DNA of 64,000 bases from an uncultured Bacteroidales bacterium. Lineage in GTDB: Bacteria; Bacteroidota; Bacteroidia; Bacteroidales; DTU049. Made by a program: the position numbers and the translations under genes. Below are positions 32,330 to 44,835 of this stretch, piece after piece. Location: the NCBI GenBank assembly GCA_964388575.1, contig CAYMAZ010000011.1:1141-65140 (forward strand), written 5' to 3'. A model generated the notes under the pieces. The model had not been told where the DNA came from. It did no database searches and saw only the letters and a list, made by a program, of their open reading frames with translations. Position 1 is the first letter of the stretch, and the number at the start of each line of letters is the position of its first letter.

Positions 32330-32868
32330 TACTTTCCTTTTTCAGACAAGGGGGTATCAGCTATGGTATTTTTCATTTATAAAATGAATGCCCCCGCTGC
32401 TGCAATTTTGCGGATTTTTCTCGCAAAGACACAGTTTTTTTTTATAGAGCGGTACTCTGTAAATTTATCTTTTGTCTGGAGTCAGGTGTATGCAAATATT
32501 ACAGTGCGAGTTGGTGGACTGACAAACTAATGCGCATGAACAGTGTGGTTTTGTTTTTACCACACGATGCAATCGTTCGGTTTTGGGGGTTGACGGTTTG
32601 CCACTTGGCGTAGGCGGGCAGTTTTGAAAATATATCATTCCGGCCAGCACAATTTTCATTAAATGTACAATCTTTCTCCTTACACCAATGTGCCCGTTAG
32701 CGTTTAGCCTTTGTTAACTGCAGGCTATCTTTACAATGGATTCAGAAATCTTCATCAATTCATTCATTAATAATTATAAACCAAGTACTTATGATAAAAG
32801 TCATTCTAGGATTTTGGGTATCTCCAATAAGGTATGCAAATAAAATCTCAATATGTTTTGAATCTCAA

Positions 32869-33057
32869 TTAAGCTTTATTTTTATTATTAATATATGAAA
32901 TATATCGACCAATATAATATGCGATAATCAAGGGCAGCCAAAGATGTCGGCATATAATGTTGCAGTTATCTATATTTTGATCAAAGTTCAGAATTATTAA
33001 GTAAACTCCGAATGAAAGTATTATAAAGACAATGTCAAAAAATTTTCCTTTATTCAT
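32869..33057 (-). CDS. Possible small two-TM membrane protein (weak call)
   Basis: A 62-aa ORF with two hydrophobic segments in an extremely AT-rich stretch. No homology recognised. Confidence 0.2.
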   Translation of the reverse strand: MNKGKFFDIVFIILSFGVYLIILNFDQNIDNCNIICRHLWLPLIIAYYIGRYISYINNKNKA

Positions 33058-33221
33058 AATTGTTTTCTTCTAATGATTAAAACTCACATTTAATAACGAA
33101 TTCAAAAACCAGCAAATCTTCCTGATATTAGAATTCTTTATTTTGCTTGCAACTTTCTAGTTTTTTATTCAACGTTTTGATTTTCAAAAATAGATAATAT
33201 TTTTAATTCTGCCGAACAAAT

Positions 33222-33371
33222 TTGAGACCACTGAGATGAAATCTTGCTTTCAGGAGCAGCTGTCTCAAAACAACAAAATACCTTTTGTATTGCCATACTC
33301 TCATTATTCATGGTATTTGTGAAATTCGTGGCTAAAAAAACGGAAGTCTTGAACCTGCTGAGCAGTTACAA
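33222..33371 (+). repeat. Structured intergenic repeat, partial copy A' (lacks the left closing arm)
   Basis: It aligns by eye with 28731-28879 in the same orientation. The core TGTCTCAAAACAACA..CCTTTTGTATTGCCA.ACTCTCATTATTC.TGGTATTTGTGAAATTCGTGGCT is nearly identical. The hairpin TTTGAGAC/GTCTCAAA is retained (33221-33228 / 33262-33269). Confidence 0.6.
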
Positions 33372-33405
33372 AAAAAGCAGATTGTAAGAAATCTGCTTCT
33401 TTTTA
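33369..33405. terminator. Bidirectional terminator hairpin (serves the minus-strand DUF3108-like gene)
   Basis: AAGCAGATT (33375-33383) pairs with AATCTGCTT (33390-33398) across a 6-nt loop. An A-run lies upstream and a T-run downstream. Confidence 0.7.
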
Positions 33406-33420
33406 AACATTCAGGCATCG

Positions 33421-39032: not shown

Positions 39033-41321
39033 ATGAAGTTAATATTCTTAAAAGTCATTTTGCCTTTTGTATGTGCCATAACACCTCTATTATGTGCCGC
39101 AAAACAAACTGCGATCATCCCTGCGCCAGTGAACATTGAGTATCTCAAAGGCAGTTTTCTTTTTTCTCCTTCAGTAACTATTGTCAGTACCAACGGAAAA
39201 TTTCAGAATGAAATCAGGTTTTTTAATGAAATGCTGAACAAATATTTCGGCTTTACTCTTTCCAAAGACACACAAGCTTCTGAAAAAGAATGTATTGAAT
39301 TGATTTACGATTCAACTTTTGGCAGTGAGGAATATCTTCTTGATATTTCATCCTCAATAATCAGAATTCAGGGAAGGGAAGCCGGCGTATTCTATGGTTT
39401 GCAAACCCTTCTTCAGCTGCTTCCTCCTCAAATGAATGGCAAAGCTGAAGTTCCCTGTCTTCGAATCCATGATTATCCCCGTTTTCATTGGCGGGGTATG
39501 CATCTCGATGTGAGCCGACACTTTTTCCCAAAAGAATTTATTTTCAGGTATATTGACTTTTTGGCAATGTATAAAATGAATACCTTCCACTGGCATCTTA
39601 CAGATGATCAGGGTTGGAGAATTGAAATAAAAAAATATCCGCTGCTGACAGAGATAGGTGCATGGCGGAAAGGCACACTCATCGGTCATGCAAGTGATGA
39701 AGCCATGCTTGCAGATACCTTAAAATACGGAGGATTTTACACGCAGGAAGAGGTGCGCGAGGTTGTTGCCTACGCAAAAGCCCGGCACATTACAATCGTC
39801 CCTGAGATTGAAATGCCGGGTCATGCTATGGCTGCATTGATGGCATATCCGAATTTATCGTGCACCGGAAAACAGCAGGATGTTGCTACAGCTTGGGGTG
39901 TTTTCGAACATGTGTTCTGTACGAAAGATGAAGTGTTTGAGTTCCTTGAAGATGTTCTGACCGAGGTTATTGATCTGTTTCCTGAGACCTATATTCATGT
40001 GGGTGGAGATGAATGTCCCAAAACCAACTGGAAAAAATGTCCTCATTGCCAGGCACGTATGAAATCCGAAGTATTGAAAGATGAACATGAACTACAAAGT
40101 TATTTCATCACACGTATCGAAAAGTTCATCAGCAGTAAAGGCCGCAAACTGATCGGATGGGATGAGATCCTTGAAGGCGGGCTGGCCCCAAATGCAGCCG
40201 TGATGTCGTGGCGGGGAACTGAAGGTGGAATTGAAGCAGCACGATCCGGACATTACGCAGTCATGACTCCCGGCTCACATTGCTATTTTGATCATTACCA
40301 GGGAGATCCCACAAATGAGCCGTTGGCATTCGGAGGATTTACCACTGTGGAGAAGGTCTATTCATACGAGCCCGTTCCTACCGAACTAAATGAGGAAGAA
40401 GCAAAATTCATTCTTGGGGCGCAGGGAAATGTATGGACTGAATACATTGCCACCGAAAAGCATGTTGAGTATATGATTTTCCCACGCCTCTGTGCGTTGT
40501 CTGAGGTTGTCTGGACTCCTGCAAAACAAAAGAATTGGATTGATTTCCGCACAAGGCTGATCAGACATTTTGATTATTTTGATCACAGAGTCATCAATTA
40601 CTCCAGGGCATTGTTTGAGATAAGAAAAAAGGTGGTCTGTGATACTGTTCAGAGAAAAATTTTTCTGGAACTCAGTCAGGAACTGAATATGGGAGACATT
40701 TACTACCATATTGCAGGAAAGGACAGCTCAATACAATTACATACCGGAGGATATTCTGTACCCATAGAAATTACAGATTCTTATACTGTTTACGCTTCTA
40801 CGTATGATGCAAACGGGAAACAAAGAGGCAGCACCAAGCAGGAGTTTGTTCACTCTTTGTCCTCAGGAGCAAAGATACAGCTCACTCATGCTCCTTCAAA
40901 GTTTTACAATTATGGCAGCCCATATACTTTAGTTGACGGTGTGTCGGGAAGAGTGCCATGGAATGGAAAGGAATGGCTGGGATTTTCCAATACGGATATG
41001 GAGGCTGTGGTTGATCTCGGAAGAAATGAAACCATTTCAACAGTGAAAGTTCATGCATTGAAAGCTGAGGCAAGCTGGATATATCTACCAGTTGGAATGA
41101 CAGTTTGGGTATCTTCGAATGGTAAAAAATTTCAGAAAGTTGGTCAGTTATCAGCTGAAGAAATAGCAGCTGGCGGAAGATTCATGACTGTTGAGCTGGC
41201 AAAACCCGTCAATGCAAGATATGTGAAAATTCTGGTTGAGCGGGCGGGAATCATCGGTGCTGGAAAGCAGGGCGAAGGACATAATGCATGGTTGTTTATC
41301 AGTGAGATTGAAGTTCGGTAA
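39033..41321 (+). CDS. Beta-N-acetylhexosaminidase (GH20) with C-terminal F5/8-type-C (discoidin)-like domain
   Basis: RGMHLDVSRHF, FHWHLTDDQGWRIEIKKYP, IVPEIEMPGHA and GGDEC are GH20 catalytic motifs. Signal peptide present. Confidence 0.9.
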   Translation: MKLIFLKVILPFVCAITPLLCAAKQTAIIPAPVNIEYLKGSFLFSPSVTIVSTNGKFQNEIRFFNEMLNKYFGFTLSKDTQASEKECIELIYDSTFGSEEYLLDISSSIIRIQGREAGVFYGLQTLLQLLPPQMNGKAEVPCLRIHDYPRFHWRGMHLDVSRHFFPKEFIFRYIDFLAMYKMNTFHWHLTDDQGWRIEIKKYPLLTEIGAWRKGTLIGHASDEAMLADTLKYGGFYTQEEVREVVAYAKARHITIVPEIEMPGHAMAALMAYPNLSCTGKQQDVATAWGVFEHVFCTKDEVFEFLEDVLTEVIDLFPETYIHVGGDECPKTNWKKCPHCQARMKSEVLKDEHELQSYFITRIEKFISSKGRKLIGWDEILEGGLAPNAAVMSWRGTEGGIEAARSGHYAVMTPGSHCYFDHYQGDPTNEPLAFGGFTTVEKVYSYEPVPTELNEEEAKFILGAQGNVWTEYIATEKHVEYMIFPRLCALSEVVWTPAKQKNWIDFRTRLIRHFDYFDHRVINYSRALFEIRKKVVCDTVQRKIFLELSQELNMGDIYYHIAGKDSSIQLHTGGYSVPIEITDSYTVYASTYDANGKQRGSTKQEFVHSLSSGAKIQLTHAPSKFYNYGSPYTLVDGVSGRVPWNGKEWLGFSNTDMEAVVDLGRNETISTVKVHALKAEASWIYLPVGMTVWVSSNGKKFQKVGQLSAEEIAAGGRFMTVELAKPVNARYVKILVERAGIIGAGKQGEGHNAWLFISEIEVR

Positions 41322-41449
41322 TGGTTTCTCGCATAGACGCAGAGACGCAAAGAAGATAATTTTTTACCGATTATTACTAATGAAAAAAAGAATTGAGAAC
41401 TTTGTAAAAATCATCGTAAAGTCAAAATTTTATGATGTTATTTGCTAAA

Positions 41450-41569
41450 CCAAAGCCGTGATTTACTCTGAAAATTCTGATTTTGTAAGCATGCTAAAAA
41501 AATCGAAATTTTCAGAGTAAATTGCAAACACAAGCTCATGTTTTGTTTGTCTTTCGGACACGGCTTTGG
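41450..41569 (+). repeat. Structured intergenic repeat, copy B (closing stem + two internal hairpins)
   Basis: Closing stem CCAAAGCCGTG (41450-41460) / CACGGCTTTGG (41559-41569). A 16-bp perfect hairpin ATTTACTCTGAAAATT (41461-41476) / AATTTTCAGAGTAAAT (41507-41522). A second hairpin CAAACA..TGTTTG (41525-41549). Confidence 0.55.
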
Positions 41570-41652
41570 GAAGAACATTTTTCAATTTTGATTTACTTGT
41601 GACTCTTTAAATATTATTACTTTTACGACATAAACCAAACATACCTACATCC

Positions 41653-42030
41653 ATGCATGAAAATGAAATTGCCTCAATCGTTGTAGATACATGTTTCAAA
41701 ATTCATTCAGAGCTTGGACCTGGTCTTTTTGAATCAGTATATGAAGAAATTATTTATTATGAGTTGAGGGAAGCAGGATTAAGGGTTGAAAAACAAAAGT
41801 CAATTCCTGTTTTCTGGAAAGAATTAAAGATGGATGTTGGTTTTCATGCTGATCTGGGCATAGAAGAAAAAGTCATTCTTGAAATTAAATCAATTGAAAC
41901 GATTGCATCTGTTCATAAAAAACAGCTCTTAACATATTTAAAAGTTACAGGGTTGAAGTTGGGACTTCTGATAAATTTCAATGAAGCTCTCATTAAGACC
42001 GGCATAACAAGAATTGTCAACAAATTGTAA
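41653..42030 (+). CDS. GxxExxY protein (PD-(D/E)XK nuclease-like superfamily, PDDEXK_3 type)
   Basis: The motif GPGLFESVYEE and the D..(E)IK core (GFHADLGIEEKVILEIKS) fit the GxxExxY / PD-(D/E)XK-like small protein family. 125 aa. Confidence 0.85.
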   Translation: MHENEIASIVVDTCFKIHSELGPGLFESVYEEIIYYELREAGLRVEKQKSIPVFWKELKMDVGFHADLGIEEKVILEIKSIETIASVHKKQLLTYLKVTGLKLGLLINFNEALIKTGITRIVNKL

Positions 42031-42074
42031 ATTAACAGCGTCTTAGCGCCTTTGCGAGAAAAACACAAAAAATT

Positions 42075-44702
42075 ATGAAAAGAATTTACATTTTAATTTT
42101 AGTTTTTACACTAACCATTGGTTTATCAGCGCAAATCATTACTAACCCCCGGCGGATTGAAGATATTGAAACGATGTTACAACAGCAACAACTCATGCTG
42201 GGACAACGCTCAGAATCCGTATTTGGCTTTTTGAAAGACAACATCACTAGCGATGAAATGCAGGCAATGAAGTTCCTTTATGCCTATATGCCTTTGAGTG
42301 ATATGGCCGATTATAGCAATGAATTTTTTCTTGCGAATGTCAGGTATTCCATGAAAGCTCTTCAAGAAATGCCTTGGGCTGCAAAAGTGCCTGAAGATGA
42401 GTTTTTGCATTTTGTCTTGCCATTGCGAGTAAATAATGAAAATCTTGATTCGTTCAGGATTGTGTGTTATCATGAATTGTCAGAACGTGTAAAAACCATG
42501 AGCATGTATGATGCTGCTATGGAGGTGAACCACTGGTGTCATGAATATGTTACATACAGAGCGTCTGACGGTCGAACAAGTTCTCCGTTAAATACGATGA
42601 AATATTCTTTCGGGCGTTGCGGTGAAGAGTCTGTTCTCACAGTAGCAGCCATGCGAACAGTTGGAATACCTGCCCGCCAGGTATATACTCCGCGCTGGGC
42701 ACATTCCGATGATAACCACGCCTGGGTTGAAGTGTGGATTGATGGTCAATGGTATTATCTTGGTGCATGCGAGCCCGAACCCGAACTAAACATGGGCTGG
42801 TTTTCTTTCCCAGCTTCCAGAGCAATGCTGGTACACACACGTGCCTATGGAAAATACTTTGGTTCCGAAGAAGTCATCACTGCTGAAGAACGCTTTTCTG
42901 AATTAAACCTCATATCCAACTATGCTAAAACAAAAAACCTTGTCATACAAGTTTACGATCAAAACGGCCTTCCTTCTCCCGGCGCAGGAGTTGATGTGCT
43001 GCTTTACAATTATGCCGAACTTTACCCCATCGCCAAAAAAACCACTTCACAGCAAGGCACGACTGCAGTGACACTGGGACTCGGAGAAGTCATTATCTGG
43101 GCAACAGACGGAACACTGTTTAACTTTGAACATGTCAGGGTTGAAACCTCTGATACTATTCACATACAGCTCGGAATTAAACACAATGTTCCTTACAGGA
43201 AAAATTTCACTTTTATACCGCCAAAGGGCACATTTGTTGAACCTTATTCAGGAGTAAAGGCTGAGCTGACGCGTCAGAGACTCATATATGAAGATTCTCT
43301 CAGGGCAGTGTATATGTCAACCTTTAAGGATTCTTCCCGATCAAATGATATCGCACACACACTTGGCTTTGAACCGCAGACTGCAGGTGATTTTATTCAG
43401 AGAAGCTATGGAAACCATGCTTATATCATAGAATTTTTGCAGCATACTCCTGATGATTTAAAAGACATGGCACTGATGCTTCTTGAGGTAATTTCGGAAA
43501 AAGACCTGCGTGATGCAACTGCCGAAGTATTTTTTGACCACCTGATGGAAACAGCAGCACTGAAAAGTGACTGGTATACCAACGACAAAGATATGTTTGC
43601 TTCATACATCCTCAACGGCCGGATTGCCAATGAAGACATGAAGGCATGGAGAAGCTTTCTGAAAAAAGAATTGAATTTTGAATTTTTAGGAAAGGAAATA
43701 TCACCGGCTTTAATTGAACAGTGGGTGAAAAGTAATATTCAGATTCATAAAACGGCCAATTTGCACTCCAGGGCTCCGCTTTCACCTGAAGGAGTCTGTA
43801 AGCTCAGGGTTGCAGATCCGGGATCACGTGATATTTTTTTTGTTGCATTGTGCCGCACATTCGGTATTCCTTCACGTCTTCATCCTGAAACAAGAATTCC
43901 TCAATATTTTTTCGCAGATCAATGGAACAATGTATGGTTTGATCCGGAAACGGACGGAATACAAGAAACAGCACAGTTGTATTTTACCAATCCTTCAAAA
44001 AGTACAACCGACAAATACTATAACACTTTTACGTTGTCACGTATTGAAAAAGGCAGAATGAAAACACTTGAATATGACTGGGGAAAACCTCTCACAGAAT
44101 TGGAAGGAAACCCTCAGGAAGTGTTTGCGGGTGATTATGTGCTTATAAAAGGGATTCGACTCACTGATGGTACTGTGATTTCAGAATTTTTACTTTTCCC
44201 CATGGCCGCAGGCGAAAAAGCTGAAGTCAATGCAAATGCACCGCAACTTCAAGCATCAAAAAGCAAAAACAGCAAACTGAAACTGAAAAATATTGTTCCT
44301 GAAGAATTTGGTACCGGAAAACAGGAAAACCTGGAATGGGCAGTCAGGAACAGAAATGTGTTGTTTGTTTTTATTGATCCTGACAAAGAGCCTTCGAAGC
44401 ATGTGATGCATGATCTGGCACTGGTGAAAACGAAACTTGAAGAAAGCGGAATTACAATTTATTATGTTTTGTCGCCGTCAATTCTCAGCCCTTCGTTTCA
44501 CAGTGGATTGTTTAAAGGAATGCCTGAGCAGGGAAAGTATTTGCTTGACACAAACGATGAGCTCACAAAGTTGGTTTCAGAAAAAAGTAGCGATAAAACA
44601 CTCCCAATGATATGCCTGATATCGCCCAAACGAAAGATCCTTTATCTGAGCAATGGGTACAGAATTGGCACAGGGGATGAGATATTGAGGTTGTTGAAAT
44701 AA
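42075..44702 (+). CDS. Transglutaminase-like (papain-fold) domain protein, secreted, 875 aa
   Basis: FGRCGEESVLTVAAMRTVGIPARQVYTPRWAHSDDNHAWVEVWIDGQWYYLGACEP contains the Cys...His...Asp transglutaminase-core pattern. Signal peptide present. Confidence 0.75.
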   Translation: MKRIYILILVFTLTIGLSAQIITNPRRIEDIETMLQQQQLMLGQRSESVFGFLKDNITSDEMQAMKFLYAYMPLSDMADYSNEFFLANVRYSMKALQEMPWAAKVPEDEFLHFVLPLRVNNENLDSFRIVCYHELSERVKTMSMYDAAMEVNHWCHEYVTYRASDGRTSSPLNTMKYSFGRCGEESVLTVAAMRTVGIPARQVYTPRWAHSDDNHAWVEVWIDGQWYYLGACEPEPELNMGWFSFPASRAMLVHTRAYGKYFGSEEVITAEERFSELNLISNYAKTKNLVIQVYDQNGLPSPGAGVDVLLYNYAELYPIAKKTTSQQGTTAVTLGLGEVIIWATDGTLFNFEHVRVETSDTIHIQLGIKHNVPYRKNFTFIPPKGTFVEPYSGVKAELTRQRLIYEDSLRAVYMSTFKDSSRSNDIAHTLGFEPQTAGDFIQRSYGNHAYIIEFLQHTPDDLKDMALMLLEVISEKDLRDATAEVFFDHLMETAALKSDWYTNDKDMFASYILNGRIANEDMKAWRSFLKKELNFEFLGKEISPALIEQWVKSNIQIHKTANLHSRAPLSPEGVCKLRVADPGSRDIFFVALCRTFGIPSRLHPETRIPQYFFADQWNNVWFDPETDGIQETAQLYFTNPSKSTTDKYYNTFTLSRIEKGRMKTLEYDWGKPLTELEGNPQEVFAGDYVLIKGIRLTDGTVISEFLLFPMAAGEKAEVNANAPQLQASKSKNSKLKLKNIVPEEFGTGKQENLEWAVRNRNVLFVFIDPDKEPSKHVMHDLALVKTKLEESGITIYYVLSPSILSPSFHSGLFKGMPEQGKYLLDTNDELTKLVSEKSSDKTLPMICLISPKRKILYLSNGYRIGTGDEILRLLK

Positions 44703-44729
44703 CAAAATGAATGAATCCAATGAATTATA

Positions 44730-44808
44730 GCCACGAAGACTCAAGGACTCAAAGGTTTCACAAAGCTAACCTCTTTGTGATTTCTTAATGCCTTAGAACC
44801 TTCGTGGC
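44730..44808. repeat. Nested hairpin built from CACGAAG / CACAAAG words
   Basis: Outer stem GCCACGAAG (44730-44738) / CTTCGTGGC (44800-44808). Inner stem TCACAAAG (44758-44765) / CTTTGTGA (44773-44780). It lies between the transglutaminase-like gene and cutC. Confidence 0.5.
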
Positions 44809-44835
44809 AAAAAAATCAATAAAAAAAATAATAAA

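Follow-up and report, generated by a model that had tools for sequence, protein, structure and literature searches.

Inverted octamer-repeat arms around a GxxExxY nuclease-fold gene: a candidate repeat-plus-enzyme module at a Bacteroidales locus

How does a small unit with a single convincing gene, closed at both ends by inverted copies of a short repeat, come to lie in the narrow gap between two protein-coding genes, and what could it be doing there? The question is raised by a stretch of 64,000 nucleotides from an uncultured Bacteroidales bacterium (GenBank assembly GCA_964388575.1, contig CAYMAZ010000011.1, positions 1,141 to 65,140 of the forward strand), hereafter the window, in which positions are counted from the first letter. 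The unit spans 41325-42061 (737 bp) between a GH20 gene and a transglutaminase-like gene, and its sole convincing open reading frame (ORF), at 41653-42030, encodes a protein of the GxxExxY family. An initial annotation of the same DNA had described a repeat-bounded cassette with a structured hairpin and a nuclease-fold gene, and had compared it with modules of the REP/RAYT type or with miniature inverted-repeat transposable elements (MITEs). The follow-up reported here gives about an even chance to the reading that the unit is a module resembling the REPtrons and TIRtrons, whose enzyme is a PD-(D/E)XK nuclease and not an HUH transposase. What the data establish, besides a well-supported anatomy, is the tie between arms and gene across the family, filled and empty orthologous sites, a bias in orientation and position, and vertical persistence; that the nuclease acts on its own arms, as DNA, is what we infer.

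The ends of the unit carry the argument. The exact 9-nt inverted pair of the initial annotation is confirmed, with TTTCTCGCA at 41325-41333 and its reverse complement TGCGAGAAA at 42053-42061, and it extends into a terminal inverted repeat (I2) of 24 nt at 83% complementarity (41325-41348 versus 42038-42061). The 9-mer occurs three times in the window, where 0.66 occurrences are expected, a count that no shuffled sequence reached. Both ends are copies of a 28-nt motif, the arm, in which the pentamer TTTCW is joined to three tandem CGCAAAGN octamers. The left arm (L), TTTCTCGCATAGACGCAGAGACGCAAAG at 41325-41352 on the + strand, comprises a terminal TTTCT and three CGCAnAGn octamers, and the right arm (R), AACAGCGTCTTAGCGCCTTTGCGAGAAA at 42034-42061, also on the + strand, begins 3 nt past the GxxExxY stop codon; the two are the arms of I2. 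Across 80 GxxExxY loci, the arm upstream of the gene reads TTTCWCGCAAAGRCGCAAAGRCGCAAAG and the downstream arm is its reverse complement, CTTTGCGYCTTTGCGYCTTTGCGWGAAA. When compared with the cross-phylum consensus CTTTGCGYCTTTGCGYCTTTGCGWGAAA, derived from outside the window, L (as the reverse complement) agrees at 26 of 28 positions and R at 23 of 28, and none of the window shuffles reached a match of 21/28. The 16-nt inner half-motif GCGYCTTTGCGWGAAA has three sites in the window, namely the two cassette arms and a solo site at 32417-32432, and was absent from all 40 shuffles.

The solo site is a shortened left-arm copy (TTTCTCGCAAAGACAC, + strand, 15/16 match to the inner half-motif), located 88 nt past the stop codon of a gene for an 835-aa membrane protein; it comes after a GC-clamped hairpin (GGGGGTATCAGC...GCCCCC; context 32340-32460) and lies where a gene-poor stretch of about 1.1 kb (32330-33420) begins. 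One further arm-like site, a 21/28 match at 42276-42303, was set aside as chance, as it lies in the codons for a conserved KFLYAYMPLSD of the transglutaminase-like gene, which are found also in the orthologues with an empty site.

The unit fits its gap tightly. Only 3 nt (TGG) separate it from the GH20 stop codon at 41319-41321, where the initial annotation had counted 4, and 13 nt lie between its end and the ATG (42075) of the transglutaminase-like gene, as that annotation had stated. Inside are the nested-hairpin element (element B) and the GxxExxY gene, though not these alone, for L is followed by about 100 nt before the hairpin begins, and the hairpin by 83 nt before the gene's ATG. The ORF survey found no transposase or integrase within or adjoining the unit, in agreement with the first description.

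Is the association of arm and gene peculiar to this locus, or does it belong to the family? It was followed through a census of 80 loci with relatives at 62-77% identity, one genome per species, from several orders of Bacteroidota, from Ignavibacteriota and Chlorobiota, and from one metagenome-assembled genome labelled Paceibacterota. An arm lies within 400 nt of the GxxExxY gene at 77 of the 80 loci, and 272 of the 289 arms in these 453 kb fall within that distance of a gene. The predominant layout is L-gene-R (45 loci), followed by R-gene-L (11) and same-orientation arms (9); at the median, L precedes the ATG by 27 nt and R follows the stop codon by 7 nt. Simple cassettes measure 438-702 nt (median 469), and in the tightest only 2 nt separate the ORF from each arm; the window unit, with 300 nt from L to the ATG, exceeds all of them in length. 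Some loci have arms in arrays, alternating (R L R L) or in tandem, with as many as 13 + 10 copies. Same-orientation arrays surround the GxxExxY genes of loci L005 (2438-3772), L017 (3393-3706), L013 (2851-3644) and L008 (2768-3411), with up to 13 arms upstream and up to 10 downstream, spacers of 4-18 nt and variation mainly at octamer positions four and eight; ORF callers read such arrays as peptides, for example SLRLCVFA or RKDAKAQR.

The same layout, with variant octamers, extends to distant homologues on megaplasmids at 44-49% identity. A Sphingomonas homologue has CGCGAAG octamers and lies between fabD and fabG, a Gemmatirosa homologue has CGCAGAGG octamers, a Bacteroides finegoldii homologue located between radA and the next gene has CACAGAGG octamers, and a Bernardetia homologue has CACAGAGA octamers, while a metagenome homologue of 46% identity retains the CGCAAAG type. 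A Treponema copy (33% identity) is associated with a different, 11-nt inverted repeat. In a 40%-identity member on a plasmid of Fusobacteria bacterium ZRK30 (L213, ~601-975), direct repeats of about 50 nt (AATCrGTGAAAAT...CAGATTTAATCCGTGTACCTAT) take the place of the inverted octamer arms. In Sphingomonas parapaucimobilis (L211, NZ_CP155749.1) the CGCGAAG-arm cassette occupies 555-993, beginning 4 nt past the fabD stop codon, and the annotated ORF runs through the right arm to stop 2 nt before the start of fabG. From the fabD-cassette-fabG arrangement it follows that an essential operon tolerates the insertion.

The position of the cassettes relative to their neighbours is strongly biased. They are co-directional with both neighbours at 58 of 69 loci. 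Of 26 simple cassettes, 15 have a left arm that starts 0-5 nt past the upstream stop codon, and in 23 of 24 the next ATG follows the right arm at a distance of 1-53 nt; all three counts are inflated by orthology. A layout with so little, or no, room for a promoter implies expression by read-through.

Do the arms also occur without the gene? A reverse census, in which metagenome contigs were searched for GCGNCTTTGCGNCTTTGCGWGAAA, yielded at least 80 loci (475 kb) with a GC content of 0.30-0.66. Among the matches listed, there are 170 arms and only three GxxExxY genes, and all three L-to-R pairs spaced 391-517 nt enclose one of these genes. In the same set, 38 of the 51 adjacent L-to-R pairs are gene-free doublets of the hairpin type with 8-48 nt between the arms, and R-to-L pairs at 3-28 nt number 14. 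Clustering of the ORFs within 250 nt of an arm gave GxxExxY as the only specific recurring family among these matches, and no other cargo family, Y1 transposases included, recurs beside the arms. Given the gene, an arm is present with a probability of about 0.95; given an arm pair, the gene is present, among the matches listed, with one of about 0.06. This is the pattern expected of an enzyme gene accompanied by non-autonomous repeat derivatives. Gene-free doublets also occur near some GxxExxY loci. With the same arms flanking nearly all close GxxExxY genes and the gene-free doublets commoner still, the comparison with REP/RAYT or MITE-like modules drawn in the initial annotation proves apt.

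Doublets too can be present or absent, as is seen at one orthologous spacer: a doublet is found there in L014, L022 and L058, and the spacer is empty in L012, L018, L027, L031, L032 and L068. For the L058/L068 comparison the exact limits of the doublet are not definable, as the two spacers cannot be aligned. Among 20 loci with doublets, an Rfam scan found no family that covers them. The interior of a 558-nt L...R pair in L136 has no Pfam match. In L113 (3205-3406) the loop of a CGCAAAG-type doublet contains another, different inverted pair (AACCACGAAAGACACGAAAAA ... TTTTCGTCCTTTTCGTGTATTTCGTGGTT), which suggests a second octamer-repeat family and loops that accept insertions. Runs of 100 N stand at arm doublets or between tandem cassettes in L057 (3995-4094), L063 (1529-1628) and L077 (1168-1267). 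Deliberate masking was rejected as their origin; they are assembly gaps, some of them at repeats, and where they coincide exactly with the repeats, these break short-read assemblies.

Whether the unit was inserted can be judged from the orthologous LeuRS-GH20-transglutaminase-CutC loci, which were recovered through homologues of the transglutaminase-like protein. The closest relatives (L083/L084, 89% identity in that protein) have the full cassette including the hairpin element. A more distant one (L208, 70%) has a canonical short cassette in the same place, its right junction homologous (GCGAGAAA followed by 13 nt and the ATG), with about 15 nt from L to the GxxExxY start codon and without the hairpin. 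In L085 (75%) the GH20 stop codon is followed by an A-rich spacer of 18-20 nt and the ATG, with no arm, and the same armless A-rich spacer is seen in L086/L087 (70%); in L209 (62%) a 78-nt spacer is likewise devoid of arms. Three relatives (four contigs) thus have an empty junction, and two others, L083/L084 and L208, have the cassette at the same position, with R followed by 13 nt and the ATG. The initial annotation had proposed to look for such empty sites, with the GH20 stop codon directly followed by the transglutaminase-like gene; they exist, and the cleanly empty or filled junctions support a discrete unit delimited by its repeats. In a neighbour-joining tree of the transglutaminase-like proteins, the window groups with L208 and L083, and L085, L086 and L209 fall outside, although the internal branch is short. 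Taken together with the tree, the filled and empty sites are explained by one ancestral insertion of the whole L-gene-R unit. The neighbourhood also differs in a second gene: an AAA_14/DUF4143 ATPase gene lies on the opposite strand between the transglutaminase-like gene and cutC in L085 (6712-8010), L086 (6755-8056) and L087 (4008-5309), and is missing from the window (equivalent position ~44703-44835), L083, L208 and L209.

Once in place, the cassettes appear to stay. The 80 census loci include large orthologous groups (14 of the Prolixibacteraceae type, 8 from Ignavibacteria and 8 of the Cyclobacteriaceae type), and within each group the cassette occupies the same site, with the identity of its ORF roughly tracking that of the flanks. 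Same-site cassettes whose divergence follows their flanks argue for long and largely vertical residence, as is the case for RAYT genes. As for the earlier suggestion of a minimal mobile unit, recent mobility is not evident, this cassette and others having kept their loci while the hosts diverged substantially. Local exceptions exist. Between the window and L083 (41322-42074 versus 882-1631) the ORF is 98.9% identical and R with its spacer 100%, the region from L through the hairpin is 93-97% identical and the neighbouring genes 86-92.5%, so that conservation is mosaic; between L050 and L055 the ORFs are 100% identical and the flanks 82-93%. ORFs that are closer to each other than their flanks hint at recent exchange or conversion of the ORF block, or at an unusual constraint at the nucleotide level.

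What is kept in the arms also bears on their role. The predicted RNA duplex of the window's L and R has an energy of -31.1 kcal/mol, against -8.7 +/- 3.0 for shuffled arms. Across elements, complementarity at the variable arm columns is 0.61 within an element and 0.55 between elements, and the corresponding duplex energies are -34.7 and -33.1 kcal/mol, while the arm sequence itself is conserved across phyla and over a GC content of 0.30-0.66. Since the consensus is kept more strongly than the pairing of an arm with its own partner, sequence-specific recognition is indicated, and selection appears to act on the arm sequence and not merely on pairing. GxxExxY is the one protein that always travels with the arms and is hence their natural candidate reader. 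The arm is not self-complementary and has no terminal GTAG or CGTC; it is asymmetric, with a purine-rich 5' arm and a pyrimidine-rich 3' arm.

The protein (125 aa; gene at 41653-42030, + strand) is a clear member of PF13366/TIGR04256. It scores 130.8 bits against PF13366 PDDEXK_3 (cut-off 22; residues 5-121 on profile positions 2-117 of 117) and 135.9 bits against TIGR04256 GxxExxY of NCBIfam (cut-off 35). In alignments of 41-52 homologues G24, E27, Y30, D67 and K79 are invariant and E77 is conserved in at least 90%, and the window protein has all of them. The predicted catalytic set is E27, D67, E77 and K79, and an E/D/E/K site is typical of metal-dependent DNases. At positions 65 and 69 (codons at 41845-41860) it carries H and G, where more than 90% of its relatives have R and I and the L083 copy has R and V, so this copy of the nuclease may be impaired or starting to decay (R65H, I69G). 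Its AlphaFold2 model (pLDDT 85.5, pTM 0.79) shows a minimal PD-(D/E)XK alpha-beta-beta-beta-alpha-beta fold. Foldseek matches in the Protein Data Bank (PDB) are all weak (TM 0.3-0.47); the best is Cas4 SSO0001 (E 1.9e-3), followed by lambda exonuclease, archaeal (tRNA-)splicing endonucleases and RecU, which are generic PD-(D/E)XK neighbours, and a sequence search of the PDB gave no match to a solved structure.

The family is very large (17,066 clusters at 50% identity, E<=0.001), and a survey of the PD-(D/E)XK superfamily lists its function as 'Unknown'. A known defence protein was ruled out, PADLOC and PHROGs having given only marginal matches to Cas4, AbiEii and 'CRISPR-associated' entries. 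Nor is the cassette phage- or plasmid-borne: no relatives were found among IMG/VR viral contigs and GenBank phages, and only 8 of 72,556 plasmids, mostly megaplasmids, gave a match. Among the protein-representative matches are proteins of about 272-295 aa with two tandem GxxExxY domains (P0242-P0244, P0250, P0261, P0278 and others), which, judged from their domain layout, would fit cassettes in tandem that have fused or are read through, or else a covalent form of an obligate dimer.

If arms and gene make up the family design, what of the hairpin that makes the window copy so conspicuous? Element B (120 nt, 41450-41569) consists of an 11-bp closing stem (CCAAAGCCGTG/CACGGCTTTGG) around a hairpin with 31-nt arms and a second short hairpin. 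Its RNA minimum free energy is -50.4 kcal/mol on the + strand (z -7.1; none of 200 shuffles folds as well) and -45.9 kcal/mol on the - strand (z -7.2), so that it folds about equally well on either strand. Copies are absent from the rest of the window and from the 80 other GxxExxY loci, and L208, an older version of the same insertion, does not have it either; it was found only in L001, L002 and L083, with 93% identity in the last. Some of the changes relative to L083 break the stem and some improve it, in a comparison of just two sequences. A gathering-threshold Rfam scan of the whole window gave no matches, and at E<=10 the matches in the unit were limited to miRNA precursors, of a generic hairpin kind. 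Direct repeats of 9 nt on its two sides (TAAACCAAA, TGATTTACT) were dismissed, being at the chance level for 900 AT-rich bases. Element B is real but lineage-specific and outside the family design; a structured leader, a small RNA and a palindromic insertion that has decayed are candidate identities. The hairpin is thus no general partner of the nuclease, nor its general substrate, and the suggestion in the initial annotation of a nuclease with its own structured substrate finds no support on this point.

The remainder of the unit is leader sequence. The segment from L to the hairpin (41353-41449, + strand) holds only a 22-codon ORF of no known family; counted with the left arm (41325-41449), it is 96.8% identical to the same locus in L083, and the segment without the arm has no counterpart in the short cassette of L208. 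The 83 nt directly 5' of the GxxExxY ATG (41570-41652, + strand) diverge fast, with 65% identity to L083 between stretches of 93-99% on both sides. Matches to sigma-70 promoters at the 5' leader are at the chance level, and no terminator-like or intrinsic terminator sites were found.

How does such a unit relate to systems already described? REPtrons and TIRtrons comprise RAYT/TIRYT genes flanked by REP/TIR repeats, along with dispersed REPIN/TIR doublets (PMC3733652, PMC3116915). The likeness is extensive: a single small nuclease-type gene stands between inverted copies of a short repeat; copies of the repeat without the gene are in excess, whether single, as inverted doublets or in alternating or tandem arrays; repeats lie just 3' of ORFs, mostly between co-directional or convergent genes; and the gene is long-lived and vertically inherited, with no classical transposon features. 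The differences are equally plain. The enzyme here is a 125-aa PD-(D/E)XK nuclease and theirs an HUH/Y1 (IS200/IS605-like) transposase; the arm is a pentamer plus three tandem octamers and not the GTAG/CGTC-tagged palindrome of the definition (PMC3733652); its sequence is conserved across phyla; and whereas their repeats are dispersed in the gene's own genome, the doublets here are known from separate metagenome loci and from the vicinity of some GxxExxY loci. The module works in the manner of a REPtron or TIRtron, yet on two defining points, enzyme class and a palindromic, tagged repeat, it falls outside that class.

With MITEs and their parent insertion sequences, the unit shares terminal inverted repeats of about 28 nt, presence or absence at orthologous intergenic sites, and gene-free derivatives of ~65-105 nt that outnumber the gene-bearing form of ~470 nt. 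Unlike these, it persists for long at fixed loci. Lacking a transposase of the DDE, serine, tyrosine or HUH type, and with no target-site duplication found, it is strictly speaking neither a MITE nor an insertion sequence.

Homing endonuclease genes, free-standing or intron-encoded, include PD-(D/E)XK types such as I-Ssp6803I. They resemble the unit in having a small nuclease ORF as sole cargo, cleanly filled and empty sites without a target-site duplication, and a mode of spread by break repair that needs only a hydrolytic nuclease, but here there are many insertion loci, no intron or intein, and conserved inverted arms that travel with the gene. Intervening sequences of 23S rRNA can also carry small ORFs and are excised, and PF05635 is named '23S rRNA-intervening sequence protein'. 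These too place a small ORF within helix-forming inverted flanks that are tolerated in an essential transcription unit; the present cassettes differ from them in lying between protein-coding genes and encoding another protein family, and excision at the RNA level is theirs. Integron cassettes, finally, share the promoter-less single ORF, the imperfect palindromic site and upstream-driven expression. The unit is not one of them: the arms, read directly, contain no attC cores (RYYYAAC/GTTRRRY), there is neither an integrase nor an attI array, arms stand on both sides of the ORF, and the insertions are scattered between core genes. In the literature no description of the cassette was found for GxxExxY, PDDEXK_3, PF13366 or the arm sequences, only passing mentions.

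The account to which we give an even chance, that of a REPtron/TIRtron-like module on a PD-(D/E)XK nuclease, would run as follows. The whole unit would have been inserted once, in an ancestor of this lineage, into an A-rich spacer of about 20 nt between the GH20 and transglutaminase-like genes, and inherited vertically since. Its promoter-less gene of about 375 nt would most likely be transcribed by read-through from the gene upstream. A dimer of the GxxExxY protein would recognise the octamer arms as DNA and cut at or near them, and host break repair or recombination, using the arms as homology, could then lead to the clean acquisition, loss or copying of gene and doublets alike. In the window's own sub-lineage, the hairpin and the remainder of the 270-300-nt leader would have been gained secondarily.

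Several observations weigh against this account. The cassettes stay at their loci across whole families, with ORFs diverging as their flanks do; transposition, if any, is rare. Inspection by eye of the window junctions (TGG left, AACAC right) and of the flanks of 87 L...R pairs showed no target-site duplication. The function of the family is listed as 'Unknown', and binding or cutting of the arms by the protein is something that we infer. A 125-aa hydrolytic nuclease cannot join strands, and mobility must rely on host functions. The 64 kb of the window hold only two arms and one truncated copy, the 11 R-gene-L and 9 same-orientation loci mean that the gene is not always inside an L...R pair, and many census loci belong to orthologous groups, so the counts are not independent. 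Further, a role at the RNA level would account equally well for the strong tendency to share the direction of the neighbours and for a 5' arm rich in purines and a 3' arm rich in pyrimidines.

Such a role is the main rival, which we hold possible though clearly less probable than the account above. The cassette would be a promoter-less operon passenger whose arms pair in the read-through transcript as a helix of about 28 bp, and RNase III or the encoded enzyme would cut this helix, releasing or insulating the cassette mRNA and leaving the flanking genes unharmed, in a manner comparable to the excision of 23S rRNA intervening sequences; gene-free doublets would be RNA hairpins for processing or stability. 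Much of the layout is as this predicts: the co-direction with both neighbours at 58 of 69 loci, insertion within tight operon junctions such as fabD-fabG, left arms that abut the upstream stop codon and right arms 1-53 nt before the next ATG, the many copies without promoter room between L and the ATG, the stability of the window duplex relative to shuffled arms, and the excess of L-gene-R over R-gene-L (45 versus 11). Moreover, the octamer variants (CGCAAAG, CGCGAAG, CGCAGAGG, CACAGAGG) differ mainly by transitions, keeping one arm purine-rich and the other pyrimidine-rich, and the weak Foldseek matches include tRNA-splicing endonucleases. Pairing alone, however, would permit compensatory drift, and the sequence is instead conserved across phyla and a GC range of 0.30-0.66, with complementarity within an element barely above that between elements. 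R-gene-L, R-R and L-L layouts and same-orientation tandem arrays exist, the E/D/E/K site is of a kind typical of metal-dependent DNases, and no Rfam family or terminator-like feature was found. A more radical version, in which the cassette is an intron-like passenger of the mRNA, its paired arms cut by the endonuclease or RNase III and the operon mRNA resealed by a host ligase (e.g. RtcB), is a long shot; if true, insertion between essential co-transcribed genes such as fabD and fabG would be phenotypically silent. That low estimate is shared with a less radical proposal, in which the cassette of about 470 bp enters hairpin doublets through break repair that the nuclease triggers, and would be the smallest mobile DNA known to be autonomous.

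The arms could, on the other hand, be target and not cargo, which we regard as unlikely though by no means negligible. The doublets would then be an independent hairpin family and the GxxExxY genes selfish ORFs that land, or are retained, in the hairpin loops, and the arms would be the split halves of an earlier hairpin instead of the element's own ends. The doublets do far outnumber gene-bearing pairs among the matches listed, the summed gene-to-arm spacers (27 + 7 nt) equal a typical doublet loop (8-48 nt), a variant inverted pair is indeed nested in the loop of another doublet in L113, and some genes, as in L030, stand between two complete doublets and not inside one. The empty GH20-transglutaminase junctions speak otherwise, being free of any hairpin, from which it follows that arms and gene arrived together here, or in two steps without a trace. 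In the tightest copies the mobile unit would shrink to little more than the ORF, with 2 nt on each side up to the arm; distant protein lineages have arms of different variants; and no other gene family occurs in the loops among the matches listed. That this is an ordinary gene beside a chance inverted repeat, or beside ordinary terminator or regulatory hairpins, with nothing modular or mobile about it, is the least credible reading of all. Stable vertical inheritance and membership of so common a family would suit it, but the arms match a cross-phylum consensus at 26/28 and 23/28 with no shuffle close, arms are found at 77 of 80 loci, relatives have cleanly empty orthologous sites, and no terminator-like features were found.

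As it stands, the cassette in the window is typical of its kind, old and possibly in decay, and has an unusual, lineage-specific structured leader. For the family, the conserved three-octamer arm and the doublets provide a testable candidate substrate for a very large group of proteins whose function is listed as 'Unknown'. The arms also explain common spurious small ORFs (...SLRLCVFA...) and assembly gaps in the genomes of Bacteroidota and other bacteria. Should the REPtron/TIRtron-like reading hold, the cassettes would constitute a second class of repeat-plus-enzyme system, parallel to REP/RAYT and based on a different nuclease fold, and they raise the question of how a promoter-less ORF can sit exactly past the stop codons of tight operons without harm.

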